A stretch of DNA of 64,000 nt from an uncultured virus (IMG/VR IMGVR_UViG_2718217648_000002) (IMGVR_UViG_2718217648_000002:1-64000), one strand, 5' to 3'; positions 3,862-63,494 are shown, counted from the first letter of the stretch. Numbers and translations are program-made. The notes: a model not told the origin generated them from the sequence alone.

Positions 3862-4030
3862 ATTAAACATCTCTCCTAAATTAAATTTGAGCACAAAAAA
3901 GAGAGAAGGGGACAAATCCCTATCTCTCTTTATCTCACGTATGCTCTTGTTATCTCTGTTTTTGAATGCCGTAAATTGAATAAAATTTATATTTTAACTA
4001 GAACATAACCACCTCCTTTAATTTTAAGGG

Positions 4031-6580
4031 TTACTTAATTAAGCAGATGGCAATGCCGTAACCGAGCTTGTCTGAATATGGAGTTACAATCTCCATAGCC
4101 TTCCAAGAGTAAAACCTGTCTTCTGATTTTGTGCCGATTCCATAATTACCTTCAATTCGATCTCCCACAGAAACAGTACTGTCCACTTTCACATAAACCT
4201 GTCCAAGCAATCCTACTATATTCCATTCAGGACGTTCTTCACGAGGGACGTAATCTATTTTTTCAATCCACTCAGGGTTTACTTTAGGCAGCTTCTTAAC
4301 ATCACCGGTTTCTGGGTTGACCACATCTTCATATATGTATCCACCAAACTCATTCTTTAAATATCTACCTTGCCAGTGAATATCAGCTCCTCCTAGAATA
4401 GTTCCTGCAGTTTCAGAGATTACTCCGTGTACATCTTCACCTTTTCTCGCCGGGCGAATTTTAGCTCCTTCAAGAGTGACAATTGTCCCTGTCGGAATTG
4501 CTTTTCCGTCAAGACTTTCAAAATACTCAGCGTAATCACTAAAGGTGGCTCCGCCATTCATCTTTCCTGCCGATGTTATATCCCCATTCATGGAGTTTAG
4601 CATCCATTTAATATTTGCTCTGGACGGAGTAGCGCCATATCCGCCAACCACCATATAGCGATCATTTTCACCAAGTTTTACACCTCCAGAAGCGTGGATT
4701 TCACGTGATACATTTTGCCCCTCGATATGAGAATCATTGGAGTTGTAAACACCGCTACGAGATCCATCTACAGAGCTTCCGCCTGATGAGCCGAAAACGT
4801 TGGTTCTTGTTCCCTTTGCAACGCATCCTCCGGTAGTAGCTCCAACTAAAGTGGCATCTCCAAGTGCTTGAGGTTCACCCGATGAAGCTAATACTGCACT
4901 AGTATTTGTTTTAGCATAGCCAGAAGTCGTAGCCCCACGTAGACCGCCCTTGAAATTATTCGGGATAAACGTGTAGGTTTTTCCGGCAATTTTACTGGGA
5001 GTAGCGTATTGTTCACACATCGCAGCGCTAATATTAGCTTGTGAATTCGTGCAGTAAACACCTATCGAACCTGCTTTGTTTGATCCCGTCATGTTAACGT
5101 TATTGATATTGACTGAGCCAACTTTACTTCCCACAGCAATACCAACTAAAGCAGATTGGTTAATGGTTACATTCGAGATGTTTACATTATCTGATTTTTG
5201 AGCTCCACCGATTACATAGATATCGTTACTCGCTGTTGTAAATCCCGAAACAGTGATGTTGCTTAGGTTGATATTTTTGCTTTTATATTGGGTGGTGATG
5301 ATTGCAGTGTTTTTATAATCATAGGTTGGATCACCAATTGCGTTGAAGTTCGAAACGTTGACATTTCTATAAGCGGAAATGACTAGTGCGCGAGGATTTA
5401 AACCTTGATAAAGGTCACTGAAAATAGGATGTTGTGCAGTGCAGTTAACGACATTAATGTCAAATGCACTTGTGGAGATTTTTTCGGAGGCTAGGTGGAA
5501 GCCAATATGTCTAAAGTCGAAAGCGCGGATATCATTTTCGGAATAGCAGTTTATTAAGTTTACGTTTCTTGCTGCAGGTGCTCTATTGTGAGCTTTGACT
5601 TCAAAACCCCTGCAATTTTTTCGGCTGTAACAGTTCACAAGCCATACGTTTTTAGAGCCATCATCAATTTCAAAACCGTTTGAATTTGAAGCTCCTTTGC
5701 TGTGTGCGGATCCATTAGCGTCATAGGCGTAACAGTTAGTGAAGAAGATGTAGTCTGAATAGTGAGTTGTGAAGCCATCATCACCATAGTTAGTTGCAGT
5801 ACAATTTTCAATCCAAACATATTTGCTACCATTTGGCTGATAATGATCTGCTCCATCAGAAGAAGAGTTCCAAACAGGGGAGCTTACATCAAAACCGTGT
5901 ACACCTGGATTACGAGCATTGACGTTTCTAACCCGAACAAATTTAGAGTTAACAATCCCCACACAGTTTGCATTTGTTCCATTTGTAATGGTGTTGTCCT
6001 TTTTGTCTAAATTCCAATCGAGGTCTAAGTCTTCAATTAAGATATATTCGTTTCCGTTTGTGTAGTCGCTATTGGTTAACACACAAGATGTTCCGGTAGC
6101 AGTTGGGTGAAGCTTGATAATAGATCCTGATCCAACACCGTAAAGTCTGACATAAGAAGGGATATGTAATCCTTGAACCATATAAATACCTGCGGGTACA
6201 AAAACTTCTCGCTTCCCGCTGGCAAAGGCAGCTTTGAAAGCTTCAGTGTCATCAGTAACACCATCACCCTTAGCTCCAAAATCCTGAACATTGACACTTC
6301 GTCTGATAAACTCATTTAAGACTTTATCAACAATTGTTGCACCAGCTGCAGGGATTTTTGAAATGTCTCCAATAGTGTTTGTGATATCTGTTAAACCAGA
6401 ATCGACTGTGCTTATTACGTTTTTAATATCCTTAGAAGCTTTATCAAAAGCCTCTTGAATATCGTCTGCAGTATATCTAATATTATTTGATTTTAACCCT
6501 ATGGCATCAATGGGTATCCATTGCTCTGTTTCTTCGTCCTTATAGCCCATTGTGTTTACGGGAATTAAATTGTCGCTCAA
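4031..6580 (-). CDS. Pre-neck appendage/tail spike: pectate-lyase-like beta-helix with C-terminal peptidase G2 autocleaving chaperone (phi29 gp12/YobO-like)
   Basis: VNVQDFGAKGDGVTDDT, beta-helix repeats, DYAEYFES and RPEWNIVGLLGQ motifs. Confidence 0.85.
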   Translation of the reverse strand: MSDNLIPVNTMGYKDEETEQWIPIDAIGLKSNNIRYTADDIQEAFDKASKDIKNVISTVDSGLTDITNTIGDISKIPAAGATIVDKVLNEFIRRSVNVQDFGAKGDGVTDDTEAFKAAFASGKREVFVPAGIYMVQGLHIPSYVRLYGVGSGSIIKLHPTATGTSCVLTNSDYTNGNEYILIEDLDLDWNLDKKDNTITNGTNANCVGIVNSKFVRVRNVNARNPGVHGFDVSSPVWNSSSDGADHYQPNGSKYVWIENCTATNYGDDGFTTHYSDYIFFTNCYAYDANGSAHSKGASNSNGFEIDDGSKNVWLVNCYSRKNCRGFEVKAHNRAPAARNVNLINCYSENDIRAFDFRHIGFHLASEKISTSAFDINVVNCTAQHPIFSDLYQGLNPRALVISAYRNVNVSNFNAIGDPTYDYKNTAIITTQYKSKNINLSNITVSGFTTASNDIYVIGGAQKSDNVNISNVTINQSALVGIAVGSKVGSVNINNVNMTGSNKAGSIGVYCTNSQANISAAMCEQYATPSKIAGKTYTFIPNNFKGGLRGATTSGYAKTNTSAVLASSGEPQALGDATLVGATTGGCVAKGTRTNVFGSSGGSSVDGSRSGVYNSNDSHIEGQNVSREIHASGGVKLGENDRYMVVGGYGATPSRANIKWMLNSMNGDITSAGKMNGGATFSDYAEYFESLDGKAIPTGTIVTLEGAKIRPARKGEDVHGVISETAGTILGGADIHWQGRYLKNEFGGYIYEDVVNPETGDVKKLPKVNPEWIEKIDYVPREERPEWNIVGLLGQVYVKVDSTVSVGDRIEGNYGIGTKSEDRFYSWKAMEIVTPYSDKLGYGIAICLIK

Positions 6581-6593
6581 TATATACTCCTCC

Positions 6594-7409
6594 TTATCCT
6601 TTTCTAATCCAAACCATGCTTCCGTCAGGGGGTTCTACAGATGGTTTTATCCTCATCTTTTTGGGAGCATTGTTCGTTCTCAACCATACTGATCTGATGT
6701 TGTAAGGCTCTACATAGCTAGAAACAATGTTGAAACCATCATACTTATCTGACACGCTAATATTTATCCAGTCGAAACCATCCCATCGATATTCAATGCC
6801 TGTTTCTTTTACAGTGACAGTCCAACCAATTTGAGGGGAAGGATAAGTGTTCAATAAATCCTGATAGGTGTACACAAACGGCAAGTAAATCTTCCTAGTA
6901 TTCTCAACTACATACTCATAATCTGATGTTGCTTGTCTGCACCAATTTGTTATTTCAATACAGCGCTTGGTGACACGTTCACATTCAGCAATACGTTCAT
7001 TGATACGAATAATGGCATCTTCAGCATCATCAATTAAGCCTTGAAGCGTTTCAATGACCATATTTCCTTGTCGTTTAATCCAAATTCTTGAGGCAGGGAA
7101 GAAGGATGCGCCTTCTCCTTGATATGCAAAAGTAAGTGATTTGCCTTCATTTGAACCATTGAAAAAGACAACTCCCATAAGGTAATCAACCTTAAAGTAG
7201 TTGTCTTCTAATTCACCATCTTCAATTTCTCGCCATTCTTTACTGTCACCACTAACCTCGACTCTGTACTCACGGTTAGGTACTTCTGTAAGTAAGACTC
7301 GACCATTGTAAACAGTTAAAGTTTCACTATAGCTTAAATAAGGGTCATCGATTGAACCCTTCCTTTTTTGAGAAAGGGTAGGGTCGTTATAGAGCTGAGG
7401 AAAATCCAA
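6594..7409 (-). CDS. yomF: Tail/baseplate protein, YomF-like
   Basis: 271 aa, synteny. Confidence 0.65.
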   Translation of the reverse strand: MDFPQLYNDPTLSQKRKGSIDDPYLSYSETLTVYNGRVLLTEVPNREYRVEVSGDSKEWREIEDGELEDNYFKVDYLMGVVFFNGSNEGKSLTFAYQGEGASFFPASRIWIKRQGNMVIETLQGLIDDAEDAIIRINERIAECERVTKRCIEITNWCRQATSDYEYVVENTRKIYLPFVYTYQDLLNTYPSPQIGWTVTVKETGIEYRWDGFDWINISVSDKYDGFNIVSSYVEPYNIRSVWLRTNNAPKKMRIKPSVEPPDGSMVWIRKG

Positions 7410-19659: not shown

Positions 19660-19762
19660 CTCTCCATATTATCGTCAAATATGGAAATAAGTTTAAGGTT
19701 TTATCCATAAGCAAAACCCTTCGGTAGAAGGATCTTGATTCTGCATAAAAGAGGGATTTCAT

Positions 19763-20773
19763 TTACACTTCAAATTTTGCTTTCTTGTCTTGAATAGCAT
19801 CTTTGTTTACTTCTAGATAGTGATTCTTTGTTACGTCAGTGCCTTTATGGTTCAATAATTGAGACACGTCCTCTAGACTCATGCCACTGTGATACAGAAG
19901 GTTACTACCACTGTGCCTTAAATCATGACAGTGTAATTCAGGAATATCAATTATTTCTCCGATTCTCTTTATCCAATATCCTTGTAAAGTTCCGGTTTCA
20001 GCTTTCTTCCATATGCCTCCGTACTTTGTTATGAAAAGGTATTCGCATTCAATTCCGTTTTCGGATCTGTACTCCAGCCATTCCTTAACAAGATCAATAG
20101 CTCTTTGAGAAGGGAAGAGGGTGACTTTATATCCTTCTTTTTCAATGACATCTTCCACCCGAAGTCTTTCAAAGTCAATTTGTTCAACCTTAACGTTGCT
20201 TATGGCATTAGCTCTGGCCATCGTTGAGAGACCGAATTCAAAGAAGAGCTCTAACTGAATATTTTCCTTCTTTTTAAGTCCTTTTCTGATTTCTTCGACT
20301 TGTTCTTTTGTTAGGAAGGTCTGTTTAATTTGAAGTTTTTCACCAGTTCCAGCTTTAGGCCTGTCTAAGAAGTCAACGGGATTCTCTTTAATCTTACGTT
20401 TTTTCCTTAAAAATAAAAAGAATGAGCTAATACTACTCATTCGTCTCTGAATTCTTCGTTCATTATTGCCTAGAATACTGGTGCAAAATGCAACAAAGTC
20501 TTCAATTAAATCAACCATATCATCAGGATCTTCTTTAATAATATCCACAATGTGCTGATTATTGTAATTCTCTAAAATGTATACCAGCCATTGATTGAAA
20601 TCTGATTGATATCCCACTTTACTGGATTCCGAAAGGTTCATGTTTTTAAAGACAAAATACTTTCGGATTAATTCCGCATTTTTGGGGTTAATTTTGTTGA
20701 CCTTTTCTTTTGTTGCATATGCTATCTTTTTTCTGGCCATTAATACACCACCGTTATTCTGTTTTAATACCAC
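19763..20773 (-). CDS. yomM: Tyrosine recombinase/integrase family protein
   Basis: STMAR, HDLRHS, LNH, Y catalytic-type motifs; 336 aa; synteny. Confidence 0.9.
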   Translation of the reverse strand: MVLKQNNGGVLMARKKIAYATKEKVNKINPKNAELIRKYFVFKNMNLSESSKVGYQSDFNQWLVYILENYNNQHIVDIIKEDPDDMVDLIEDFVAFCTSILGNNERRIQRRMSSISSFFLFLRKKRKIKENPVDFLDRPKAGTGEKLQIKQTFLTKEQVEEIRKGLKKKENIQLELFFEFGLSTMARANAISNVKVEQIDFERLRVEDVIEKEGYKVTLFPSQRAIDLVKEWLEYRSENGIECEYLFITKYGGIWKKAETGTLQGYWIKRIGEIIDIPELHCHDLRHSGSNLLYHSGMSLEDVSQLLNHKGTDVTKNHYLEVNKDAIQDKKAKFEV

Positions 20774-21170
20774 TTGTATTTAAATCTTTTATCATAGCAG
20801 CAACTAATCGTCCATCTTTTAAGGATTCAGCAGTATTCTTCATGACTGGGCGAGGTTTTCCGTAACCATAGCCGTATTTATCTGGATACGTGTACCCTTG
20901 ACCAGTCTCAACAACCGTAGCAACATCCTTGCCGTTGTCTTCACGGTTGTTGTCTAATGAAATTCCGTTATATTCGTTTTGAATGACAAAGGAGTCCTTC
21001 AAAAGAGAAGTACGTTCATATACAAGAGGATCGTATGTGTCATATACATCAGATTGTACATGCTCTTGACCCGTTTTAATCATCGTATTTTTTGTGCTGG
21101 ATTGTTTTTGAACGGCTTGCTTTGCGGCAAATTCAATTAATGCTGCTATTTCTTTTATGTTCTTGGCCAT
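20754..21170 (-). CDS. yomN: Phage structural protein YomN-like
   Basis: 138 aa, synteny. Confidence 0.6.
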   Translation of the reverse strand: MAKNIKEIAALIEFAAKQAVQKQSSTKNTMIKTGQEHVQSDVYDTYDPLVYERTSLLKDSFVIQNEYNGISLDNNREDNGKDVATVVETGQGYTYPDKYGYGYGKPRPVMKNTAESLKDGRLVAAMIKDLNTSGIKTE

Positions 21171-21655
21171 TATTCAGCCTCTTGTTCATTCTCAATCTCT
21201 TCGACCTTATTAAGGATGAGATCATTTATTTCTTCAGGAGATATGTTTGAAAGTTTGTCTAAATTCTCTTGCATCATCTTTGTTGCTTCTCCAAATTTCT
21301 TCATGCTTTCTTCAGGGAAGCTACTAATAATCAATGGGAAAAATTCAGAGTCCACAAGCTTAACAAACCACTTAACTTTGTTTTTGATATCACTTGGAAT
21401 ACCCAAGTCTGTAAATTCTTTAATTAGTGAAAAGAATCCCCATTGAACAGGATTTATGCTTTTAAAGTCAATGTTTTTTTCTTGAGCATTTTGTGGGTCA
21501 GTAATTAATTCAGTAAGCATTTTGGTTAAGCGGGTAGGGGAGAAGTAAGGGTAAATAAAAACATGAACGTCCTCAGTAAGTTGTACTCGTTCTTTCTTGT
21601 CATATTTACTTACACTTTCTTCAATCAACCCAAGATTTAATTTTTTCGATGCCAT
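21170..21655 (-). CDS. yomO: YomO-like protein (possible tail assembly chaperone)
   Basis: 161 aa, synteny. Confidence 0.6.
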   Translation of the reverse strand: MASKKLNLGLIEESVSKYDKKERVQLTEDVHVFIYPYFSPTRLTKMLTELITDPQNAQEKNIDFKSINPVQWGFFSLIKEFTDLGIPSDIKNKVKWFVKLVDSEFFPLIISSFPEESMKKFGEATKMMQENLDKLSNISPEEINDLILNKVEEIENEQEAE

Positions 21656-21737
21656 CTCATTTCCTCCTTATATATCCTCTGCACACATTAAAAAAGACAC
21701 CTCAATAGGGGAGAGGTGTCTAAATAAAACTTGTATT

Positions 21738-21932
21738 TTATTCTGTGTCTGCTTCTTCGTAGTCTTCGCCGGTGATTTCTTTGTACTCTTCTAAAGTGAC
21801 TAAACCATTCTTTACTCCTAATTGGAGCTCTTCTTTTGTCACATCGTTGAATTCCTGGTAAGCTTCTTTGACTTGATCGACGGTTGCCCATTTTCGACTC
21901 AGGGCATTAACCCAATAATTGTATGTAGTTAT
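21738..21932 (-). CDS. yomP: XkdX-family small protein (YomP-like), 64 aa, begins at ATA
   Basis: Hand translation ITTYNYWVNALSRKWATVDQ...GLVTLEEYKEITGEDY; GGGAGG RBS 8 nt before ATA. Confidence 0.75.
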   Translation of the reverse strand: MTTYNYWVNALSRKWATVDQVKEAYQEFNDVTKEELQLGVKNGLVTLEEYKEITGEDYEEADTE

Positions 21933-23965: not shown

Positions 23966-24027
23966 CTCCTAAATCTGTTTAAAAACTGACTTTTATTTAA
24001 AAAGGAGAGGGGAAGAATCCCCTCAAA

Positions 24028-29762: not shown

Positions 29763-29802
29763 TGAGTATTCCTCCTAAATTTTATAAAAGTGTTATTTTA
29801 TC

Positions 29803-30957
29803 TTAATAAAGATCATCAATAGTCACTGAACTTTGTTGCCCAGAATCACGAACTTCTGAATAAATATCGAAATTTGTGCTATTAGTCTCAGAGGCTTGCT
29901 TCTTTGAGCGTTCAGTGATGAAGGATCGAGCGATTGCTGAGTTGATTTCAGAAATAATTTCGTTTTTAAGCTCGACAGAAGGAGACTTAGAGAACATTTC
30001 AATTTTCTCTTTTGCGACATCCTTTTCTTCAGGAGAATATTCCTTTAAAGCTTGGTTAAGCTCTCCTTGCATCTTTTCGGCTACCGCCTTGTTTTTGAAT
30101 TCCTTTAGGGAATTAAGCTCTTCATCTGCCTTGGCTTTTTCATCCTTAGCTTTTTGCGCTTCTTTTTCTTTTGCATCAGCCTTAGCTTTTTCATCCTTTG
30201 CAGCTTTAACAGCGGCATTCAGTTCTTCAGTTTTTTGCTTTAAGTCCTCAGTAAGTTTCTCAACTTTTTGATTTAATTCTCCAATTTCTTTATTCTTATT
30301 ATCAAGTTTGTTGTTTAACTCAAGGACTACTTCTTCTTGAGATTTTGGCATTAAATTATCCTCCTTTTTTTTACTGTTTAATTCAAGCAAAATGGCAGCG
30401 TCGTCTGCAGGGTCAATACCTAAAATGGCATCACCTGTAAAGTCAAATTTCATAGGTATACGTCCTTGCTCTTTCCAGCCACCTTCATATTCAATTGCAT
30501 CTGAATCTTCTACAGCTGCTATCTCAACCGAGGTCTCAGGGAAATCGCCATCAAACATTTTTGATTTTAACCATTGAACAAATTTAGGATAGCGCTGGTT
30601 GTATAGGAAGCCTTCAGCTATTAACACTCTTTTTGGCTCACCATTAACATCAATAGTGTCAATGTAAGCATTGGTAGTCGTACCAACCACTGCGCTGTTT
30701 TCAAAGAGAGGGGTGCCGTCCTTGACTTCTGTTAAACCGTGTCCGAATGGCTCACTGTTTTCATCATCCAAGAATTCTGCGCAAATTGGCATTAACTTGA
30801 TTGATTCAAGGTTAGCGTTTATGTATTTCTCCAGCCAGGTAATACCGTTCTTGTTGAACTGAGTATTGTTTTCATGGATTTCGAGAACGACCCACTTGAT
30901 GTATGTTTGACCACTGGTTTTTTTCTGATTGTTAATTTCTAAAATCGTGCTTTTCAA
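29803..30957 (-). CDS. Prohead protease/scaffold protein (YonD position)
   Basis: Globular N-terminal domain plus K/E-rich coiled-coil C-terminus, between portal and capsid. Confidence 0.65.
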   Translation of the reverse strand: MKSTILEINNQKKTSGQTYIKWVVLEIHENNTQFNKNGITWLEKYINANLESIKLMPICAEFLDDENSEPFGHGLTEVKDGTPLFENSAVVGTTTNAYIDTIDVNGEPKRVLIAEGFLYNQRYPKFVQWLKSKMFDGDFPETSVEIAAVEDSDAIEYEGGWKEQGRIPMKFDFTGDAILGIDPADDAAILLELNSKKKEDNLMPKSQEEVVLELNNKLDNKNKEIGELNQKVEKLTEDLKQKTEELNAAVKAAKDEKAKADAKEKEAQKAKDEKAKADEELNSLKEFKNKAVAEKMQGELNQALKEYSPEEKDVAKEKIEMFSKSPSVELKNEIISEINSAIARSFITERSKKQASETNSTNFDIYSEVRDSGQQSSVTIDDLY

Positions 30958-32534: not shown

Positions 32535-35500
32535 CTAATTAAAAAAGAATCCAAATGAATACTCATCATCGGATTCTTCCTTTTCTAAAAATAAAGCTAT
32601 GTAATACAGCGCATAAGCAATTGCACTGTACCTATCCTTATCAATTCTTTTTACAACTTGCTCAACAGTGAAAGAATTCTGTGTCTTTTTAATTCTGAGG
32701 TTTGCTACTTCGTCAATAAACAATTGAGTTTGAATACATGCTGCTTCAATCATTACATCATCAGATATGCTTTTTTGGTTCTTGATGTCATCATAGGATT
32801 TAAGCAACTTCAATTTTCCGGACTCAACATAATCCAGGAATTGAGTAATAATGTCTTGGTTAATACCTTGGGATTTTAGGTTGTAAACGATTTCCGGCGA
32901 ATTTGGGACATCTGGCTTTTGATCAGTGTTTATTGTGGCCCAGCATCCAAGTTCTTCATTGGTCTCCGGATCCGTAACATCCTCTAATAACCGGTCGATT
33001 AAACCGCCACCGACTCCGTTTCCATCGACAATAACAGCTTTAACTCTTGAGAGAGAAGTATCTTGATTTCCTCCATAGTTTTTGAAAACTCTTTTTACCA
33101 TGATTGATTGTTCTTTAAAACTCAATCCGTTTGGTGGCTCTATAATATTGACCACTTGAACTTGCCTAATGAGGTTATTGCTGTTTCTGATTATCTTCAA
33201 AACAACGATAGCTGTTTTATTGTTTGATTCAGCCGCAGAGCGGGCTACGTCTACCCCGATTACATATTCATGTAGCAAGAAGTTCTTATTTTTATCTCTA
33301 GGACAAGAAAGTTCAGGGTGGGTAATTGTCCGAGCTTTGATCAATTTACTGATATTAATCAATGCGCCGTCACTTGCACCAATCCAGTCACAAAGGTAAT
33401 TCTGACGGAAGCGAGTTACATTCCCTTGTCGCGCTTTATTAATAACAGACATTTTTTGACGACCAAAGTGAATAGGAATGCGCCAATCTGATCCGAATAC
33501 AAAGGATCCTTTAAGATCACCAGTTTCCTTAACCATCGTAAGGATTTTTTCGTACTCATCTGAGTTTTTATATCCTGATGTGGAGAACCGGTTAATCTGC
33601 CCATTTAATTCAGCAGGATCTATTTCGCCAGTCATGGTTGTACGAGGGATGTTAAAAATCGGCTCGATAGCATCATCGTATAAATCTTTATCAATCAAGG
33701 CAGATTCCTCTAAGGAGCCACGTCTTCTACGTAAACCCTTAGATGATTGGGCGTTTGCCAGGTTATCGATGATCGCCCCGTTTTGAAATTCAACTCGACC
33801 ACTGTCTTTTGAAAAGTTTTCACTCTTGATTTCATCTTTAATGGAAGGGTAAAACCTTAAAATTTCCTCGTGCTTTTCTTTCCAAATTTTCACCGCTGAT
33901 TCCTTTGTAGAAGCGGTAATGGCTAACGTTACATTAGGAAAGCAAATAGCTGTATGGTATGCAACCATGATCTGGGTCAATGTATTATGACTAACTAATC
34001 CATTACTTACAAATGAGTTGGTTAAAGGCATATATAGATCATAAACGTAGTTCTCAGAGTCTTCTGTTTCAATTACTTTAGTGTAATAGTAATTAGAATC
34101 ATAAAGCTCTACTAAATGGTTGAATTCATCGCTATCTTTATTATCAAAACGCTCATTTTCACTTAATAATAGTGATAATTTTTCGTAAGTAAGATCATTA
34201 GATCCTTTAAGAACATGATAAAATTTATCTCTTGTTTTACCTTTAGGATAAATTGCTATAATGTTATCTTGCTGATAAGGGATGACATCTTTATTTGGAT
34301 TGCGATTTTTGTTACATATTGATATAAGTTTTTCTTGCTTTCTTGAACAACTAAATCCAATTTCCCGTAAAAAAAGATCAATATTCTTTGTAGAAATATT
34401 GATCTTATAATGATAAGTATTAAATTTTTTATTTAGATATTTTTTTCTGAAAGAAATAATACCAAAGTTTAAAAGTAACATTTGAACTTGTTTACTCATT
34501 TTTTCTGATGCAGTGCAAAATTGTACGCTTTTATTTGTCACACATCCATCGGTATCAAATAGACCTTGTATTGTTTTTGCAACAATATTTTTAGGTGCTT
34601 TAAGTATAATTTTAGGTATTTCCTTACCAAAAGCATCTTTTTCTTCCAGTCCTAACTGTCTGAAGAATTCTCGAATGAGCTTACCAAATACGATAAAATT
34701 AATTCTATCTTTTTGCTTAACTGCAATACCTAATACGTTGTTAAAATAATCTATATAATTATTTAATATATCTTCGTCTTCATTTGTAAAAAGTATTGAA
34801 TTGTTTCTAGTCAAGCAACCATCACCAAGAAGATAACCAATAATTAATGCTAATTGTTCATCAATGTATTCTGGAATATTGAATTTGTTTCTTTCTACTT
34901 GCCATCTGCCTTGATTGCTAAATCCATTTAAGAAATCATCAAAGCTTACATTTAGCTTTGTTTCACTTCCAAATACATTATTGTTTCTTGAAATAGGTAA
35001 TAAATCTCCAACTTTAATTTCACTAGAATTTTTGTATCTTAGTTTTCCATCTTCACACATTACTAATACTGGGTGATTTAAACTTGCTTCCAAGTCATAG
35101 CCATCTTGAGTTTTGATTTTCTTCGTTTTCTTGAATCCGCTTGATATGCCGGCCATAGAAGTTTCCATTAGACCATATCTGTTTTTCATTGAGATTTTAT
35201 GTATTGTTTCAACTTCAGACTCTTTTTTTTCGTAATTGAATAGTTCGCCAATTTCTACTAATCCATTTTCAGTAAATAAAACTGTGTCTCCTGCAACACA
35301 TTTTGATCCGCCACGTGGAATACAGAAGTAGTTCTGAGGGAAGCGACTGAGTGTTCTCATCATAACTCTTTGGTATAAATCCAGCTCAATTCCGCCGACT
35401 TCGGGTTTCAACATATCGTAAAAAATGTCTGGATAAAAACGAATAAATGAGGTGAACTCAGCCCATTTGGAGATATTCTTGCCAATGAAGTTTGAATTGT

Positions 35501-35600
35501 CATCTGGATTCAGAGGGGTTTCAAAAGCTGCGTCGTAAATATCTGTTCTGTTTTTTGTGTGCTTCTTGTTTTTCGAGGTGAAGTTTTTATAACTAGCCAT
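32535..35600 (-). CDS. yonF: Terminase large subunit containing an intein (582 aa after splicing)
   Basis: Walker A RGGSK/T split by intein, GLRRRRGSLEES, GVDVAR, IVDGNGVG, KDRYSA nuclease motifs. Confidence 0.9.
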   Translation of the reverse strand: MASYKNFTSKNKKHTKNRTDIYDAAFETPLNPDDNSNFIGKNISKWAEFTSFIRFYPDIFYDMLKPEVGGIELDLYQRVMMRTLSRFPQNYFCIPRGGSKCVAGDTVLFTENGLVEIGELFNYEKKESEVETIHKISMKNRYGLMETSMAGISSGFKKTKKIKTQDGYDLEASLNHPVLVMCEDGKLRYKNSSEIKVGDLLPISRNNNVFGSETKLNVSFDDFLNGFSNQGRWQVERNKFNIPEYIDEQLALIIGYLLGDGCLTRNNSILFTNEDEDILNNYIDYFNNVLGIAVKQKDRINFIVFGKLIREFFRQLGLEEKDAFGKEIPKIILKAPKNIVAKTIQGLFDTDGCVTNKSVQFCTASEKMSKQVQMLLLNFGIISFRKKYLNKKFNTYHYKINISTKNIDLFLREIGFSCSRKQEKLISICNKNRNPNKDVIPYQQDNIIAIYPKGKTRDKFYHVLKGSNDLTYEKLSLLLSENERFDNKDSDEFNHLVELYDSNYYYTKVIETEDSENYVYDLYMPLTNSFVSNGLVSHNTLTQIMVAYHTAICFPNVTLAITASTKESAVKIWKEKHEEILRFYPSIKDEIKSENFSKDSGRVEFQNGAIIDNLANAQSSKGLRRRRGSLEESALIDKDLYDDAIEPIFNIPRTTMTGEIDPAELNGQINRFSTSGYKNSDEYEKILTMVKETGDLKGSFVFGSDWRIPIHFGRQKMSVINKARQGNVTRFRQNYLCDWIGASDGALINISKLIKARTITHPELSCPRDKNKNFLLHEYVIGVDVARSAAESNNKTAIVVLKIIRNSNNLIRQVQVVNIIEPPNGLSFKEQSIMVKRVFKNYGGNQDTSLSRVKAVIVDGNGVGGGLIDRLLEDVTDPETNEELGCWATINTDQKPDVPNSPEIVYNLKSQGINQDIITQFLDYVESGKLKLLKSYDDIKNQKSISDDVMIEAACIQTQLFIDEVANLRIKKTQNSFTVEQVVKRIDKDRYSAIAYALYYIALFLEKEESDDEYSFGFFFN
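33984..35300 (-). mobile_element. Intein with LAGLIDADG homing endonuclease, 439 aa
   Basis: Begins CVAGDT (Cys1), ASLNHP block B, IIGYLLGDG and IQGLFDTDG motifs, ends VYDL...SFVSNGLVSHN followed by Thr+1. Confidence 0.95.
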
Positions 35601-36715: not shown

Positions 36716-37216
36716 TTATTTATAAGTTAAGGCACCGTTTTCGGACAAAACAACCTTGGTTCCTTTTAAGGTATCAGCAAGAGCATCCAGCAAACCTTTT
36801 CCAATACCGTTTGCATCAATTATTAACTTACTCGGTCGTTTGTCTATAATAATGGCTTTTATTTGACTAGCCTGATGTTTAAACGTTCCATGCTCCACTT
36901 TCTTAGAGATGTCCTCAATACGGGAATTATTTAAATCAATAATTAAAAAGGTTGTTTCTTCTCTTCTAGGATTAATTACAGCAATTCTTTCAGGATTGTA
37001 GCCCGTGCTCAATGTGTAGCTAGTTCCGTTTAAGGGTTTAGTAGAGAATTTGACGTCTCGGTTCAATTGTTCACTTTTAGTGTTTTTCTCAAATCCCAGG
37101 CTTTTATGCAGACTTGTCAGGGCGTCTTTTAATTCCCTGTTACACAGATAACCACTATCATTAATTTCTTTTAGCAGCTTTACATATTCCCAAAGAATTT
37201 TAGTTTCTTCTTTCAA
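36716..37216 (-). CDS. yonH: YonH-like protein
   Basis: 166 aa; IIDANGIGKG resembles the terminase nuclease motif IVDGNGVGGG. Confidence 0.6.
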   Translation of the reverse strand: MKEETKILWEYVKLLKEINDSGYLCNRELKDALTSLHKSLGFEKNTKSEQLNRDVKFSTKPLNGTSYTLSTGYNPERIAVINPRREETTFLIIDLNNSRIEDISKKVEHGTFKHQASQIKAIIIDKRPSKLIIDANGIGKGLLDALADTLKGTKVVLSENGALTYK

Positions 37217-37364
37217 TCTTCCTCATCCTCATCTTTATAAAATTAAAGTTTTATATTAATTAACAATCAAATTTACTAGAGTGCTCTTACTTTCAGGGGA
37301 CAGGTTGTCCCACTGCACTGCTAATATTTCTATAAAATCGTTTGCAGACATAGGATCATTCCTT

Positions 37365-44660: not shown

Positions 44661-44945
44661 ATGGATACTTATTTTGCTTCTGTCATTGACAACTTAACTC
44701 GAAATGATCTGTATATTCTAGGCTTATTGAGCGATGAAGGGGCTGATTTAAAGTTTAAATCAATTAGGAAGAAAACCATTCAAGCTAAAACTCAACTAAC
44801 TGATGCTACTTTTAGAAAGAGCATTGATCGTCTTGAGGCCTTGCAGTTTATTATTATAGTGAAAAACAGTAAAGAGCATACAATTTTTATTACTCAATAT
44901 GGTCAAGAAGCTTTGAGATATCAATTAAAAAGGGAGAGGGTTTAA
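44661..44945 (+). CDS. Winged-helix DNA-binding protein, 94 aa (TubR-like adaptor candidate)
   Basis: AAGGAGG RBS before ATG 44661; LTDATFRKSIDRLEALQFI...IFITQYG wHTH pattern; coupled to tubulin gene. Confidence 0.75.
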   Translation: MDTYFASVIDNLTRNDLYILGLLSDEGADLKFKSIRKKTIQAKTQLTDATFRKSIDRLEALQFIIIVKNSKEHTIFITQYGQEALRYQLKRERV

Positions 44946-46057
44946 TGTTTGGATTTATTGGAGTTGGTCAGGCCGGTGGAAGTATAGCGGATGAAGCAAT
45001 GAAGAGAGGATTTCATTCTGTTGCAATAAATTATTCACTTTCAGACCTTAATTCATTAATCAATATTCAAGATAAGCTTCATCTGGTAGGGACAGAAGGA
45101 GTAGGTAAAGACAGAAGCGTAGCAGCGAAACATATGAAAAATAACTGGGAGTCCTCTATTGAGTTCATAAAGAACACAATGGAAAAGCCTTCAGTACAAG
45201 TTATTTTCGTAGTTTTCTCTGCAGCTGGTGGAACCGGTTCAGGAGTAGCCCCTATATTATTAGAATTGTTAAACGAATGTCTTACACATAAAACAATAGT
45301 TGCTGTACCAATCCTTCCTGACAATAATGAGGTATTGGTTAACCAGATGAATACACTGGAGTTACTTGATGACTTATCTATGCCAGAGACCTGTGTCTTA
45401 CCTTTGGATAATCAAATGGTTTTGAGCAAATATGAAGGGAAGATTTCTGAAAGCAGACTATACAAGGAGACAAACAAGATGTTCCTTGATTTAATCGAAG
45501 TCTTACTCAATTACACGGACAGAGGATCAAAGATCAGTACATTAGACAGGAAGGATTTAAATCAGCTTTTTGACACACCAGGAATCATGACTATTGCTCA
45601 AACAGACCTCAATGAATTTACAATTGAGGGTAAGTATTTTGATAAGCTGCATGAAGATATACAGAAGTCGTGGAACAATTCGATATTTACTCCTGTTGAG
45701 TTTACAAATGTGATGAGAGCTGGTGTCATTCTGGATGTTCATGAGTTTTTAACGGAGCATATATCGTATAATGAGCTGTTTAATGTCTTTGATAACAAGA
45801 TGCCCCTAGACTTATTTAAAGGACATTATGATAAAGGGAATAGGGCAATAACCATCCTTAGTGGATTAACCTGGATCAATGAGCGGATGAAGCAGTTAGA
45901 TGATCTAATTGAAAGTGGAAACACTGAAGTTAAAGAAACAACTGTCTATAAAGCGAAGAATCGCCGTAGAGAGGATTTATTCAAGCCGAGGAAGCTGGAG
46001 AACAAGGAATCGAAAAAGACCTCGTATATGGAGGCACTGAAGAGACTAAAACGTTAA
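44945..46057 (+). CDS. Tubulin/FtsZ-family GTPase (TubZ-like)
   Basis: GVGQAGG, GVGKD, AGGTGSG tubulin signature, LDN, T7-like TLDRKDL, basic C-terminal tail. Confidence 0.9.
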   Translation: MFGFIGVGQAGGSIADEAMKRGFHSVAINYSLSDLNSLINIQDKLHLVGTEGVGKDRSVAAKHMKNNWESSIEFIKNTMEKPSVQVIFVVFSAAGGTGSGVAPILLELLNECLTHKTIVAVPILPDNNEVLVNQMNTLELLDDLSMPETCVLPLDNQMVLSKYEGKISESRLYKETNKMFLDLIEVLLNYTDRGSKISTLDRKDLNQLFDTPGIMTIAQTDLNEFTIEGKYFDKLHEDIQKSWNNSIFTPVEFTNVMRAGVILDVHEFLTEHISYNELFNVFDNKMPLDLFKGHYDKGNRAITILSGLTWINERMKQLDDLIESGNTEVKETTVYKAKNRRREDLFKPRKLENKESKKTSYMEALKRLKR

Positions 46058-53069: not shown

Positions 53070-53226
53070 CAAAATACACACTTTAAGAATAAAAATAAAA
53101 TAAGTATTGATTATTTAAAATAGTCATGATATACTTAAATCAAGTTAAAACAACAGCGAAAGCATACATATTTTAAGGGTAAAAATAAAATAAAATGCAT
53201 ATTTTAAACAGAATGGAGACATTAAG

Positions 53227-53889
53227 ATGAGTACATATCAAGTAGATTTCAATCAATTCAGAGGAAGTATGGAAACAACATGCGACCTATATAATTTAGA
53301 TAACAATACAACGCTTCAAACCAGCCTTTACCGTAATACTAATAGCCTTTGCATTGAATATAAGGTAATTCAGCGTGATGATAATTCAAATAGTTTTGCG
53401 GAGTACGATACACTTGCCCGTGGTTACATTGAAGTACCTTTGACTTACAATCAATTTAAGAAGCCTGTAAAAAAAGTTTATCTAAATAAAATAATTAACG
53501 CACTAGATTTTATTATTAATCAATATCTTATTATAGAAGATACTTCTCAAGAAATTAACGAACGAGTTCAAATGAAAGTGAGTGCAACTAAAATAAATGA
53601 GGAAGATCAATCTGACTTTACGAATGAAACCTCTAATTCACCAATTGATCAAATTAGGATGGAAAGATGGGACAGGGAATATGACGAGGGAGTTAAATAT
53701 TTCTTTGATAAATACGGGAATAAACGTATAGGGGATATTATTTATATTGATACACAGCAAGAGCTTGAGCATTTAGAACACATAGACTGTGATAATGTGA
53801 TAAGGATTTTTGTAGACAAAGAGCATGAAAATAAAATTAAAGCTATTGTACTTAAAGATATAAACAAACATTATCAAAGAAGTGGATAA
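53227..53889 (+). CDS. Hypothetical protein
   Basis: GGAG RBS, promoter at 53107. Confidence 0.7.
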   Translation: MSTYQVDFNQFRGSMETTCDLYNLDNNTTLQTSLYRNTNSLCIEYKVIQRDDNSNSFAEYDTLARGYIEVPLTYNQFKKPVKKVYLNKIINALDFIINQYLIIEDTSQEINERVQMKVSATKINEEDQSDFTNETSNSPIDQIRMERWDREYDEGVKYFFDKYGNKRIGDIIYIDTQQELEHLEHIDCDNVIRIFVDKEHENKIKAIVLKDINKHYQRSG

Positions 53890-53921
53890 AACAACAATTT
53901 TATACAGGAGATGATGAAGTA

Positions 53922-54152
53922 ATGGCAGTAATGAAAGAAGTGTCAATAGAAGAATATGATTTATTTAGAAAATGGTATTTAAAGTATACCAATAGCAGAG
54001 TCCTAAAAACAAAACAGAGGGCAGGGTTTACGGCTGTTCTTGACAAGAAAACAAAAGAAACTGTTTGTAGCGAAAGTCATCTTATGGGGAAAAGTAGATA
54101 CTTAATTAAACAAAATTATTATGATTTATATGCAGAGGAGGATGCGGAGTAA
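53922..54152 (+). CDS. Hypothetical protein
   Basis: ORF with RBS. Confidence 0.65.
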   Translation: MAVMKEVSIEEYDLFRKWYLKYTNSRVLKTKQRAGFTAVLDKKTKETVCSESHLMGKSRYLIKQNYYDLYAEEDAE

Positions 54153-54397
54153 TGGCTAAATGTAATGATTGTGGTAATGAACGTTTTTTCTACCTAGAGG
54201 TATCGGTGGGAGCCAAACAGCTTATTGATACAACAGGTGGAGCTAGGAACGGAAAGATTTATGATGTAGACTATTCAGATTCAGGTATAGACAATATCTT
54301 CAATAAAGGTAGTTATATTTGTAAAAAATGCGAATCGAAAGACGTACATCATGAGGATGGCGAAGGTGATTATAAACTCTATAATAAATCTGAATAA
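54152..54397 (+). CDS. Small Zn-ribbon protein
   Basis: CNDC and CKKC motifs. Confidence 0.7.
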   Translation: MAKCNDCGNERFFYLEVSVGAKQLIDTTGGARNGKIYDVDYSDSGIDNIFNKGSYICKKCESKDVHHEDGEGDYKLYNKSE

Positions 54398-54427
54398 AAC
54401 AGCAGTTTAATAGGAAAGGGGAATTAT

Positions 54428-54664: not shown

Positions 54665-54814
54665 TAAGATAAATATTTTATTAAGAGGAATGCCTGTCTA
54701 AATAAAAACACCATTTAATTCGAAACGCTTCTTTATCATCGCAAAGAAAAAATGTAAAATCCACCTATTGGCATGAGTTGTCAATGATATTGAGACGTCA
54801 TTGGGGGGAGAAAT

Positions 54815-55699
54815 TTGAAAAATAAACTTGAAAAATTGCTTCTTGAAAAGGGTGTATGTGAATTTCATATTAAGGAAATGAAGGACACCAAAAATATAAG
54901 TGAGTATCCATATGAATTGTATTATGATGAAGTCGGAAACAGCGAAAAACTATATCGGGATGTCCCGTTAAAAAAAATTAAGAGTTTAGGATTCAGGGGA
55001 ACCAGTGGTGTGTCTTGGTTTGATCACGCGTGTTATAACGGTACAGATAATATTGACATTGGCCGATGTGAAAAAGCTTTTGAATACTTAAAAAAACAAA
55101 GTCTAGAAGAATTTCACACTTATTATCAACACTCACCAGTGAAATTGGTTCATTATGAAGATGATGACTTTTATGCTGTTTACGGTGATGGAACACACCG
55201 TACAATTTGGGCCAAGATAACAGAAGCTCCAACAATTTATGCTCAGGTAACTAGAGCAAGAAAGAATCCTTCCTTATATAAATCATACTTAAGATTTAAA
55301 GAATTAGAATCACAGATTAATAGGTATTTTAAGGAGAATGACCTTAGCTGGGGAGTTAAAAAAAGCCAATACTATTCAGAAATCCTTTACAAAGGTATGC
55401 CAGTAGCACTCTATTCTATAGATCCGCCTTACTCATTTAACCGATCTTCCTACAGTCTCAATGATCAAAAGTTGGATACATGGAATAAGGAATTAAATGA
55501 ATTTATGATTGAGTTTGAAGAAAGTTTTCGCTATAGGAAAATCTTTCGCAATGTTATGAAGGTTACGCCCGGAAAATTAGAGCACAAACTTTTTTCTTTT
55601 ATTGAAAATTTAAGTGAAAGTTGGTCTACAGCTAATGGAAAGGCAAGAATTATAAAACAAGGATTCGATATGTATTGCATCGATAAAAAAATCATTTAA
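54815..55699 (+). CDS. Hypothetical protein with ParB/Srx-like DG.HR motif
   Basis: PVKL......FYAVYGDGTHRT. Confidence 0.55.
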   Translation: MKNKLEKLLLEKGVCEFHIKEMKDTKNISEYPYELYYDEVGNSEKLYRDVPLKKIKSLGFRGTSGVSWFDHACYNGTDNIDIGRCEKAFEYLKKQSLEEFHTYYQHSPVKLVHYEDDDFYAVYGDGTHRTIWAKITEAPTIYAQVTRARKNPSLYKSYLRFKELESQINRYFKENDLSWGVKKSQYYSEILYKGMPVALYSIDPPYSFNRSSYSLNDQKLDTWNKELNEFMIEFEESFRYRKIFRNVMKVTPGKLEHKLFSFIENLSESWSTANGKARIIKQGFDMYCIDKKII

Positions 55700-55712
55700 G
55701 TTACTTTAAAAT

Positions 55713-56276
55713 ATGTACAACAGCATGAGGGATGACGAAGAAACTAAAGGAGAAGTGATGAAAAAGTTAATAATTTTATGTTTGGGTATTATCGGGGTAT
55801 TTCTTATAGTTCAGTGTAGTAAATTTAACAACAATACAAAAGTTTATGTGGATACTCAATTAGAGGTAAATCACGATGATGAAAATGAAAGAAAAAGTTA
55901 TTATGACAATGATTCAAGCCAAGAAAGTGAAGCACTTAATGACAAATATTTAAACAAAGAAGAGAATAAGGAATATGACATTTACGCATATGATTTAAAA
56001 ACTAGGGAAATTCAATCACGTAATGGACAACGTGAATATGTTTATGGAGGCAACGTGATCTCTAGCACTCAAGCCGAAAAATATGGTTATCATACAACAC
56101 CAATTACTAAGGAAGGAGATAAAACAATCAAATTTTGGAGGAACGATGTAAAGTTTGTTCCTGAAAAGGGTGAGATTGTCCTGGTTAGATTTCCTAAGGG
56201 TAATCATAAAACATTTGTTGATATTGAGCTTATGTATAAGCCAACAGGAGAGCCTAATGGAGAATGGAATTGGTGA
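55713..56276 (+). CDS. Secreted/membrane-anchored protein (start probably MKKL near 55758)
   Basis: Signal-like MKKLIILCLGIIGVFLIVQC after AAGGAG. Confidence 0.65.
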   Translation: MYNSMRDDEETKGEVMKKLIILCLGIIGVFLIVQCSKFNNNTKVYVDTQLEVNHDDENERKSYYDNDSSQESEALNDKYLNKEENKEYDIYAYDLKTREIQSRNGQREYVYGGNVISSTQAEKYGYHTTPITKEGDKTIKFWRNDVKFVPEKGEIVLVRFPKGNHKTFVDIELMYKPTGEPNGEWNW

Positions 56277-56339
56277 ACAAAAACACTACTTTATTTTAAA
56301 ACGGGAATCGGGCTGCCTACATAAGAACAGCCCTTGCAG

Positions 56340-57431
56340 TTAGCTCGCAATCCTTGTTTTGACTGGTTTGTTTTTCTTGATATTACGTAATTTAAGAGCG
56401 GGTTTTTCCACTATTCTGTACGAAAGAAATGCGGATGCAGCAGTAACAGCAATTAGGGCTATGATCAGCGGGTAATCAGACAATGTTTTATTAATTCCAG
56501 TGTATAAGAAGATGTTGATGATCACCATGTGCCATATGAAAATCCCCATACTTATATCGTCTAACCGGTTCAGCTGTCGCAATATCTTCGGCCCATTGTA
56601 ACCAAACCAGACGAGTGCATAGCTCAGAGGTACGAACCATAAAAAGCTCCATAAGGTGCTGTTTATTGAACTGAGATGCAGAAGGTCAAGTTTATAGAAT
56701 AAAAATAAAATTACCGAAGACAAAAATAAAACGATATGCTGCGGTAACTTGCTCCATGCCTTAGCCCAGAAGATGCCCAAAGTGAAATAAAACATCTGCG
56801 GCAGGAAAGAATGTAAGTACAGGTTACCGAACACACTGCCAGGCGCGAACTTTAAAATTATGAAAGAGACTAACACACTGAAAGCGGAAACAGCAAAAGA
56901 GCAAAGAATCATTTTTGGGAATCCGAAACGTTTATAAAACCAATAAATTGCGGGTAACACCAGGTAAAAGCTAATCTGAACAGGAATTGTCCAAAGTGAA
57001 TCGTTAAGGCGACCTGTGCCGATGTGATGGAATATGTCAGGGAAGTATTGAGGGTATAACACAAAATTGCTAAGAAGCCATGTCCAGTACTCTTTAGTAG
57101 TGAATACTGTTAATGAAAGAGCTCCTAGAACAATTAACAGGATGGTGGAGACGATAGCATAGGTGTATATAGCGGGTGCGATCCTAATAATTCGGCTCCA
57201 ATAAAAATCGGTTACATTATTACCTTTAAGCTGAGATCTCTCATAAGAAGTAAAAAGAAAAAATGCACTTAGAAAAAAGAAGATTGATATGCCGGTGTGA
57301 AATATTGCTTTGCTCTCTGGGGTATAACCAAAGACAGAAATATTTAGATCTCTTGTAGCATGACCAATCAACACACAAAGAGCAGCAAACAGCCTGATAA
57401 CAAAGAAACAGTTAGAATGTTTTACGTTCAT
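56340..57431 (-). CDS. Acyltransferase family 3 (OafA-like) membrane O-acyltransferase
   Basis: R..AAL.V...H, FFFLS.F, RI.RI.P, LWTI, S...Y..VEKP motifs; about 10 TMs. Confidence 0.9.
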   Translation of the reverse strand: MNVKHSNCFFVIRLFAALCVLIGHATRDLNISVFGYTPESKAIFHTGISIFFFLSAFFLFTSYERSQLKGNNVTDFYWSRIIRIAPAIYTYAIVSTILLIVLGALSLTVFTTKEYWTWLLSNFVLYPQYFPDIFHHIGTGRLNDSLWTIPVQISFYLVLPAIYWFYKRFGFPKMILCSFAVSAFSVLVSFIILKFAPGSVFGNLYLHSFLPQMFYFTLGIFWAKAWSKLPQHIVLFLSSVILFLFYKLDLLHLSSINSTLWSFLWFVPLSYALVWFGYNGPKILRQLNRLDDISMGIFIWHMVIINIFLYTGINKTLSDYPLIIALIAVTAASAFLSYRIVEKPALKLRNIKKNKPVKTRIAS

Positions 57432-58469: not shown

Positions 58470-58586
58470 AAAGATATTGATCACTTAAAGTGATCATGGT
58501 ATACTAAAGTTACAAGAACAGTAAATACTTACAAATTTTATAGGTCTACATAAAATCGTACTTTCATAGGGAAAAGAGGAAAAGAA

Positions 58587-58960: not shown

Positions 58961-59350
58961 ATGAGAGAGGAAATTCAAGTGTTACTTGAAGAAATTGAAG
59001 AATTAGAAATGGCTTTAAGTAAGTCCGATAACAATACTGTTTCTGTGGTTCTTCAAGAGGCAATTGATAAAAGACGCAATGAAATTGGCGAACTAAAGCC
59101 AAATGGGTACGTCATAGCAGACGTAGTCCTTAAAGACGGTACCGAGTTAAAACGGTGCTTAGTTTTTACTGTAACAGATCGACTAGGGTCACAAGCTGTA
59201 ACTGAATTAGTTGAAGCAAGAGAAATCTTCGAAAAAGATAAAGCGGTTTATTTGCAACAGGAATATGAGGATGGAAACTTTGCAGGGGATATAGGAGTAC
59301 ACGAAATAGCAACATACAACCTTGAATATGAAAATGGTGTTAATGAATAA
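58961..59350 (+). CDS. Hypothetical acidic protein
   Basis: GGGAG RBS. Confidence 0.7.
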   Translation: MREEIQVLLEEIEELEMALSKSDNNTVSVVLQEAIDKRRNEIGELKPNGYVIADVVLKDGTELKRCLVFTVTDRLGSQAVTELVEAREIFEKDKAVYLQQEYEDGNFAGDIGVHEIATYNLEYENGVNE

Positions 59351-59389
59351 AATCATTCTTTCATCTTAATTAATAAAGGAGAGTACATA

Positions 59390-60193: not shown

Positions 60194-60273
60194 GTTGAAA
60201 TGAAACCAGTCTTTTAACCAGTTATGTAAGTCAGGTTGAGTCAGGAATACTTTTTTGAAGGGTTAGATATCAA

Positions 60274-61176: not shown

Positions 61177-61190
61177 AAAAGAGCATTAAA

Positions 61191-61373: not shown

Positions 61374-61443
61374 TAAATTTCACCTACACAAAGTATTTAA
61401 CACTACTATAATACCAGACGATGTATATAAGGAGGGTTTTAAT

Positions 61444-61695: not shown

Positions 61696-61697
61696 CT

Positions 61698-61913: not shown

Positions 61914-61925
61914 TGGGGTGTTCAG

Positions 61926-62057: not shown

Positions 62058-62127
62058 AAGTGTTGACAGAAATAAAAATACAACTGATGAGACATAAGAA
62101 CCTGAAAAGTTACTAGGGGGCATTTTT

Positions 62128-62817: not shown

Positions 62818-62921
62818 AACTTTATATTGTTTTTATGGTTTACATACTACGTTCAATTATACGTATTGAATTTGCAAACTTTTTAAATGTATTTATAATC
62901 TTCTTTAAGGAGTTGATTTAA

Positions 62922-63332
62922 ATGAATTGGGTATCTTACCCCTCAATTTTACACTATGCTAATGATGGTATTACAGTAACCTTCCCAGACCTTCCTGGTT
63001 GTATAACTTGTGGAGAAAATGATACAGAAGCAATTAGCATGGCTAAAGAAGCTTTAGGTCTTCATTTATACGGGTTGGAAATGGACGGAGAGAAGTATCC
63101 TAGTCCCTCACCGTTTTCGGAAATTAAGACAGGGGAAAACGAAGTTGTGTGTTTGATTGATGTGCCTATGCATGCATTTCGTGATGAGTATAGGCGTAAA
63201 TCAATTAAGAAAACATTAACTATTCCGGCTTGGTTAAATGAAGTGGCTGAAGAAAAGAACATTAATTTTTCCCAGGTGCTGCAGGATGCATTAAAAGATA
63301 AACTAGGACTAAATATCTTTAAGGCACAGTAA
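62922..63332 (+). CDS. hicB: HicB-family antitoxin, no adjacent hicA
   Basis: VTFPDLPGCITCG...EA..MAKEAL, KKTLTIPAWL...INFSQVLQ.AL. Confidence 0.9.
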   Translation: MNWVSYPSILHYANDGITVTFPDLPGCITCGENDTEAISMAKEALGLHLYGLEMDGEKYPSPSPFSEIKTGENEVVCLIDVPMHAFRDEYRRKSIKKTLTIPAWLNEVAEEKNINFSQVLQDALKDKLGLNIFKAQ

Positions 63333-63494
63333 GGATTCTTATTGTGCCGGTTCATATAAAATACGAATTTTAAACAGATAAGGGTTCCTTAAAAAATAAT
63401 TAGAATAAAAATAAAATAAATACTTGTAATTCTGACAACTCTAATGTATATTATAAACAAAGGGAACATTAGTTGGGAAGGGGTGTAGTAACCA

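Follow-up and report, generated by a model that had tools for sequence, protein, structure and literature searches.

The origin of phage mosaics with clean junctions at gene boundaries is a long-standing question, and such mosaicism is usually put down to illegitimate or short-homology recombination followed by selection. Boundary or linker sequences, as the modular theory of phage evolution has them, and the PeSL elements of phage T4 are brief conserved stretches at the edges of modules where exchange is concentrated, presumably through homology. In the chemistry of the Xer and Cre tyrosine recombinases, a symmetric 11-6-11 site is bound by a single protein, cut at the edges of the spacer and exchanged only with a partner carrying a matching spacer; dif has this 11-6-11 geometry, and phage P1 carries essentially one 13-8-13 site. 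On Acinetobacter plasmids, as experiments have shown, modules bounded by pdif sites with 6-bp spacers are replaced when a cointegrate forms at one spacer and is resolved at a second, and the exchange needs identical or near-identical spacers (PMC13141974). Here we describe a palindromic 28-bp site with a 6-bp spacer in 64,000 nucleotides of an uncultured virus (IMGVR_UViG_2718217648_000002:1-64000), hereafter the window, which is the first 64 kilobases (kb) of an SPβ-type virus record of 125,351 bp. From sequence comparison, we regard it as probable that these sites are points of module exchange between SPβ-like phages and that they represent core sites of YomM-family recombinases.

Like the dif modules of Acinetobacter Rep_3 plasmids, in which 28-bp 11-6-11 sites bound accessory modules, the junctions found here keep an identical or near-identical spacer, a likeness that is comparative and not experimental. 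In pdif sites the C and D arms differ, orientation alternates from site to site, spacers recur within a plasmid and host XerC/XerD is the recombinase, whereas the phage sites number 10-60 per genome, are distributed genome-wide including the structural operon, and have symmetric arms and strictly unique collinear addresses, likely served by one phage-encoded recombinase; arms of the distinct XerC/XerD type derived from chromosomal dif were not found at them. With Cre/loxP of P1 and with heterospecific lox cassette exchange the phage system would share a single phage recombinase, symmetric arms and an asymmetric spacer setting partner and direction, as well as the headful, terminally redundant DNA of SPβ-like phages, but unlike P1 it comprises dozens of 11-6-11 sites with mutually incompatible spacers and so resembles a natural version of the engineered tool. 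Boundary or linker sequences and PeSL elements are likewise short and conserved at module edges, but have no common palindromic protein site with coded spacers. The phage element works like the Acinetobacter dif modules and lox exchange; it is a member of neither, nor is it an integron. The literature covered, in listings, abstract openings and passages, contained no description of it; the element itself is real and widespread, and apparently undescribed.

The phage genome encodes a YonO-like polymerase and aimR, with yopP, yopQ and yopR lying just past the window; its accessory genes also occur in Spbetavirus isolates, and a Bacillus velezensis "plasmid" deposit is a near relative (recombinase identity 98.8%). 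The main comparison set comprised 14 Bacillus SPβ-like genomes with 525 sites, and a site profile (a position weight matrix scored in bits) was built from 190 distinct sites. Open reading frames (ORFs) came from a crude self-made caller, the records G034 (120 of 127 kb), G019 (120 of 136 kb) and G056 (100 of 129 kb) were read in part, and G001, G002, G007 and G008 (74% complete) are incomplete. Counts of pairs are pseudo-replicated, and tests at the level of addresses carry the weight.

A preliminary description of the window had noticed a TAAAA-N6-TTTTA element at gene boundaries, and this element withstood comparison with both shuffled sequence and other spacer lengths. Exact copies number 9 in the window against 1.02 ± 0.99 in 100 shuffles (maximum 5); in the whole genome exact arms enclose 6 nucleotides in 28 copies, 11 in 7 and 12 in 4, and each of the other 13 lengths from 0 to 15 in 0-2 copies. 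The motif is the core of a symmetric 28-mer, TCTVWWTAAAA-N6-TTTTAWWBAGA, in which one arm consensus serves both halves and the four central bases carry almost zero information. There are 39 such sites in this genome, against 1-3 in five local shuffles, and 38 in SPβ. The centre of a typical site lies 25-32 bp ahead of a start codon, and a stop TAA often doubles as arm positions 7-9. The polar right flank (WNCAG or WNNAR) previously attributed to the element proved to be the outer arm's mirror-image half (TCT...AGA). The element is thus a palindrome and not a polar motif, though a modest downstream bias persists. Among the 21 positions first listed, 14 pass the profile threshold and 36631, 36703, 47773, 54665, 53070, 56278 and 58927 fall below it; at the orthologous positions of relatives there are no sites either, the one exception being 56278, whose right-hand flank matches the one beside the intact ACACCA site of G003. 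The placement claimed for the element, intergenic or with a stop TAA as left arm, stands for 35 of the 39 sites, which lie outside ORF interiors, and for 21738, the stop of a short ORF, and falls at 36716, where it concerns a non-site because 36703 is below threshold. An exact match at 46047, absent from the first list, fails as well (score 8.9, not conserved).

The spacers behave as locus addresses common to related genomes, and this sharing of addresses between genomes is the key feature that the preliminary description, which had correctly seen that the spacers always differ, missed. No spacer is duplicated, in either orientation, within any of the 14 genomes, and over nine lineages no duplicates were seen against 6.4 expected; self-complementary spacers, of which 5.6 would be expected among the 271 distinct ones, are also absent (P = 0.0035). 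Eighteen spacers are common to this genome and SPβ and stand in the same order (tau 1.0), in many cases between flanks that have both been replaced, while core proteins of the two, YopP and YopR among them, are just 31-33% identical. Among 126,413 cross-genome site pairs without flank homology the spacer is identical in 968, compared with 7 in a reverse-complement control and about 80 in a composition control. When orthology was set by both flanks alone, the spacer being ignored, mismatch in the resulting 88 junction classes amounted to 0.021 in the spacer, 0.046 at variable arm positions and 0.092 in the flanks. Where one flank only is homologous, 185 of 262 and 230 of 333 unique pairs have an identical spacer. 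A gut-phage lineage of five records, with a G+C content of 42%, has a separate collinear address set, in which the spacer is identical in 18 of 18 and 27 of 29 pairs with one homologous flank; of 564 breakpoints in this lineage, 57 fall at sites, which occupy 0.66% of the DNA. That spacers are shared as addresses between genomes points to matched-site exchange involving two genomes, and not to excision or insertion within one.

Synteny breakpoints tell a similar story, since 439 of 1824 unique breakpoints fall within the intervals around sites, which make up 1.1% of all DNA and 5.8% of the DNA at boundaries; the earlier suggestion that sites of tyrosine-recombinase type mark module boundaries and attract the breakpoints of gene gain and loss is thereby borne out. 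Junctions are broken at 21 of 24 sites in this genome, compared with 17 of 47 site-less junctions, the corresponding figures for SPβ being 19 of 21 and 22 of 54. Set against neighbouring site-less junctions, breaks are more frequent at 30 of 35 addresses and less frequent at 3 (0.72 versus 0.37). Homology on the left side stops just past the right inner arm and homology on the right side starts at the left inner arm, so that the spacer is shared in both cases. Arm positions 1-6 track the left flank (0.90 against a null of 0.51, and 0.57 if the left flank differs), and positions 23-28 track the right flank (0.92 against a null of 0.52, and 0.66 if the right flank differs). Because the outer arms follow their own flanks and the spacer is shared, the crossover is placed between positions 7 and 22, and the movement of the outer arms with the flanks argues against the site being a mere conserved island. 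All four flank combinations are present at 7 of 33 common addresses, and the slot between the TGCATA and CAACAA sites holds 7 types of content in 9 genomes. The adjacent CAACAA-CAGCAG slot is filled by a module of two small genes (53909..54388, plus strand), of the same type as in the B. subtilis phages SPbetaL4 and Goe12; compared with SPbetaL4 it is near-identical core to core, with identity beginning at the CAACAA site, and unrelated outside. We hold spacer-matched exchange at the sites to be well supported by these comparisons and very likely.

If the chemistry is that of Xer and Cre, YomM would occupy both symmetric arms and cleave at the spacer edges, and strand exchange would proceed only with a partner of the same spacer, each spacer thereby serving as the address of its locus. 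Since the spacers are unique and non-palindromic within a genome, a site can match only its own counterpart on a second copy of the genome, and deletions and inversions within one genome would be blocked. If the partners are sister copies, or the redundant termini of headful-packaged DNA, the result would be only circularisation or the resolution of multimers, possibly a direct selective use. If the partner is a related prophage or a phage in co-infection, crossing over at a first address and then resolving at a second would swap whatever module or modules lie between them, in register and with genes left uncut, products that match the comparisons. Slots would be gained or lost through rare joins of differing spacers that are partly alike. 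Passages on SPβ-like phages describe headful packaging of permuted DNA from concatemers (bioRxiv 2021.11.22.469490). A site would be present in a 5-kb redundancy about 70% of the time and in a 10-kb redundancy about 90%; because redundant ends would thus usually hold a site, circularisation or multimer resolution is a plausible direct use, which would also explain the sites TACTCC and ACTGTC, whose flanks never vary.

Several observations weigh against a dedicated recombinase acting at spacer-matched sites. Most breakpoints lie elsewhere, 1077 of the 1824 at other gene boundaries and 308 inside ORFs, and some are found at a ribosome-binding site or a repressor box, from which it follows that exchange through microhomology is at work as well. 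The spacer differs, in many cases by one base, in 77 of 262 and 103 of 333 one-flank pairs, and 15 truly non-cognate spacer pairs occur at one-flank junctions; spacer identity is therefore not absolute, and such non-cognate spacers are slightly more alike than chance (0.46 and 0.38 versus 0.28). The right outer arm retains some address-specific identity (0.62 versus 0.52). Homology-driven exchange within the shared core of 16-22 bp would yield similar junctions, and when sequences are compared, cleavage by a recombinase is indistinguishable from short-homology exchange within that core. Finally, four laboratory hybrids of phi3T and SPβ, one covered whole and three in part, have no crossover at an isolated site; their crossovers lie in identity blocks of at least 1.4 kb or inside genes, the parents sharing 5 isolated site blocks. 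Passages on these hybrids assign 15 of 16 junctions to homology and place the sole 'nonhomologous' phi3Ts-SPβ junction near yosA (bioRxiv 2020.05.06.055103). The TATTCC site of SPβ (L063, 116409-116436) adjoins yosA, and this junction may bear on site exchange. As experimental proof of site exchange the hybrids were set aside, being uninformative to mildly negative.

The homology seen in the hybrids is also what favours a rather unlikely alternative, in which the arms dock a dimeric phage protein of structural or regulatory function, be it a non-catalytic YomM or another protein, and exchange is ordinary short-homology recombination, by an annealing protein or RecA, through the 16-22-bp core. 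It would accord with the marking of breakpoints by other short repeats, such as ribosome-binding sites and SroF boxes, with the missing second catalytic arginine of SPβ-type YomM, and with the existence of a sister protein, SroF/MrpR, that is a recombinase turned repressor. It leaves unexplained, however, why the spacers are unique and non-palindromic, and why, for all their lack of a consensus, they vary less than arm positions do. Moreover, the stretch of perfect identity on the foreign side frequently reaches only 5-7 bp past the spacer, near the null, and order is kept although SroF boxes provide numerous identities of the same length at places that are not orthologous.

For the preferred reading, exchange by a site-specific recombinase, YomM is the leading candidate enzyme, as had been proposed at the outset, and its catalysis at the sites is likely. 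The protein at the yomM position of the window (325 amino acids, 19763..20740, minus strand) is a Xer-like tyrosine recombinase with all six catalytic residues (R-K-H-R-H-Y) intact, for which a sequence search of the PDB gave weak Xer-like matches only. It aligns over its full length with SPβ YomM at about 20% identity, and in distant relatives its identity is 52-69%, most structural proteins being far less conserved. All 39 records selected by YomM exceed the reversed-pattern control, a few weakly. Primase was the YomM-independent marker, the portal-protein alignment being too diverged for searching; among 26 primase-selected records the five that are motif-enriched are the five best YomM scorers, and the other 21 have no excess. 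The complete genome G074, with 22 sites, has one detectable tyrosine recombinase, which is YomM-like and catalytically intact. Of the recombination and DNA-binding families, YomM alone was found in every one of the 12 site-bearing genomes compared (in 11 with the G000 query, and in SPβ by way of the family alignment), and it is absent from the 100 kb read of the site-less G056. A phosphoesterase is universal too and primase is found in 11 of 12, but the phosphoesterase also occurs in G056 and primase defined the negatives. This co-occurrence points to phage YomM rather than host XerC/XerD.

The case for YomM has its own difficulties. Two subtypes, about 20-28% identical, have common addresses in otherwise close phages, and the SPβ type has lysine for the second catalytic arginine (HxxR) in 32 of 32 alignable sequences, with Arg-I, His-I and Tyr largely kept, so that SPβ-type YomM may be slow, altered or non-catalytic. 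Some YomM records barely exceed the control (G012 with 9 against 5, G020 with 10 against 7), one of the five enriched primase-selected records (G054) is weak, with 10 of 11 matches in ORFs, and the co-occurrence set consists of few, non-independent lineages. A whole-word literature search for 'yomM' returned nothing relevant. The yomO-yomN-yomM block is itself bracketed by the GAGGGA and CTTGTA sites (19740-21746), the former overlapping the stop codon of the recombinase gene, where a site had already been noticed.

The same chemistry performed by another enzyme, YopP/SroD or the host XerC/XerD (CodV/RipX), is in our view improbable. The R-K-H-R-H-Y residues are all intact in the YopP of this genome, most relatives among the Bacillota have YopP-like genes, and the 11-6-11 architecture is the geometry of dif; on the other hand, no YopP-specific match was found in the site-bearing G074 and G008 or in the gut lineage, and the arms are symmetric, unlike C/D sites. 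A Clostridium metagenome-assembled genome shows no excess of the motif (129 versus 132), and relatives without YomM, presumably in Xer-bearing hosts, also have no motif.

The element shares with integrons compact gene units, a stop codon inside the site and a tyrosine recombinase, and the preliminary description had accordingly proposed an integron-like platform, from which single genes are excised as circles and inserted or reordered within one genome. That proposal is not supported and is now very unlikely. Streamlined units of ribosome-binding site, ORF and stop between sites would suit it, as would a few non-cognate joins that drop one slot and one possible scar with a duplicated site (54697/56272). 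Arm pairing, however, does not exceed the shuffled expectation (within 0.01) at any of the 10 pairs tested, and such arms, without covariation, form no attC-like single-strand hairpin. There is no attI/Pc platform with a single insertion point, site order is conserved (tau 1.0), and YomM scores 18.9 bits with the IntI model (TIGR02249) against a cut-off of 265. Since the two spacers flanking a module differ, excision would be blocked if spacer identity is needed. The 1.6-kb two-gene block at 54697-56299, between the ACACCA site and a decayed ACACTA copy (56272..56299, 0.5 bits, arms broken, right flank matching that of the intact ACACCA site of G003), is a possible single case of a scar of site-specific insertion. 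Decayed duplicates were set aside as a general class of scars, their number (17 versus 11 expected) not being significant.

A regulatory or RNA-level function, with the sites as operators of a known repressor (MrpR/SroF, SroE or AimR) or as RNA-processing hairpins, seems extremely unlikely, even though they lie just upstream of ribosome-binding sites and a site occurs within 300 bp of 3 of 10 MrpR ChAP promoters. The operator of SroF/MrpR (YopR) is, in passages of two sources, a non-palindromic, phage-specific 26-bp box bound by a monomer (PMC10516654; bioRxiv 2025.11.27.690993). Like the site, it is a dispersed A-tract motif of the same genomes, often beside a site, and it is bound by a protein of recombinase fold; unlike the site, it has about 10-24 copies and in this genome is a separate motif, on which ground SroF/MrpR was rejected as reader of the sites. 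SroE, AimR and YonO were rejected as not universal, YopQ/SroE being found in 4, AimR in 2 and YonO in 3 of the 12 site-bearing genomes (a comparison of gene occurrence), and an RNA or single-strand hairpin was rejected for want of stem covariation. The non-palindromic TTWAGARTAAAAATAAAAT motif has 24 copies in the genome, those of the window including 46980, 49434, 53087, 56697 and 63403 on the plus strand and 43923, 44143 and 44209 on the minus strand. It often lies just upstream of -35-like boxes and matches the published phi3T SroF operator, YopR of this genome being 77% identical to phi3T SroF; in sequence it looks like one half of the palindromic site, which it often adjoins.

We lean somewhat towards a still wider view, that of a crossover code built into the genomes of SPβ-like phages and their relatives in the Bacillota, in which one conserved recombinase, YomM, acts on tens of incompatible lox-like sites with a shared address book of spacers. 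Such a system would circularise and monomerise permuted genomes at any site, and would allow modules for defence, for counter-defence and even for structure to pass in register from one related phage to another, with genes unbroken, which would explain why small accessory genes turn over slot by slot. Among linker systems of the sort that the modular theory postulated, it would be the first concrete one to work site-specifically; it would give yomM a function, would make predictable which phages can swap which modules, and would constitute a natural library of more than 100 orthogonal recombination sites useful for genome engineering. The model phage SPβ, resident in B. subtilis 168, combines an orphan core recombinase with an unchanging map of addressed joints, so that this site-specific route is open to direct testing in existing strains.

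Individual sites of the window differ in strength and in distribution over the 14 genomes. In its left half, TTTATA (3975..4002, 23.1 bits) occurs in 3 genomes, with TCTATA in 9, these being SPβ-type phages; GAGGGA (19740..19767, 20.5 bits) in 13; and CTTGTA (21719..21746, 23.3 bits) in 5, alignments to 4 of 5 close relatives stopping there at 21742. ACTGAC (23974..24001, 25.0 bits) is replaced by ACTGTC in SPβ-type phages, and GTGTTA (29779..29806, 18.0 bits) is present in 3 genomes. TTAAAG (37232..37259, 21.3 bits) is found in 12 and is positive in the four-gamete comparison. In the accessory region, TGCATA (53185..53212) is present in all 14, with 8 families of left and 11 of right flanks, CAACAA (53881..53908; left arm the stop of 53227-53889) in 9, CAGCAG (54389..54416) in 10 and ACACCA (54697..54724, 18.4 bits) in 4. 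Farther on, TCGTAC (58545..58572) occurs in 11 and TCATTC (59342..59369; left arm the stop of 58961-59350) in 8, while CCAGTC (60195..60222, 16.5 bits) is confined to this genome. TACGAA (63351..63378, 22.2 bits) lies upstream of aimR and is represented by TAGGAA or TTGGAA in SPβ-type phages; alignments to two relatives begin at 63355-63356.

The large phages 2S-4 and PJN02 carry, at 87-88% identity, a 235-bp piece of the CAACAA-CAGCAG module (54151-54385), and other site-bounded slots hold an O-acetyltransferase-like gene (56340-57431) and a HicB-like gene (62922-63332). Metagenome contigs have joints near sites at 53217-53218/53885-53886 (two runs), 58564/59348 and 54716/56300, which were not counted, their sides being short and the intervening sequence unknown. 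Elsewhere in the window, a terminase-like ORF of 1021 amino acids (32535-35600) is 96% identical to that of phage SPR and 24% to that of SPβ; it is far longer than SPβ YonF and possibly carries an insertion. A tubulin/PhuZ-like gene, found here in an SPβ-like phage, occupies 44945-46057 and is annotated as FtsZ in the B. velezensis relative.

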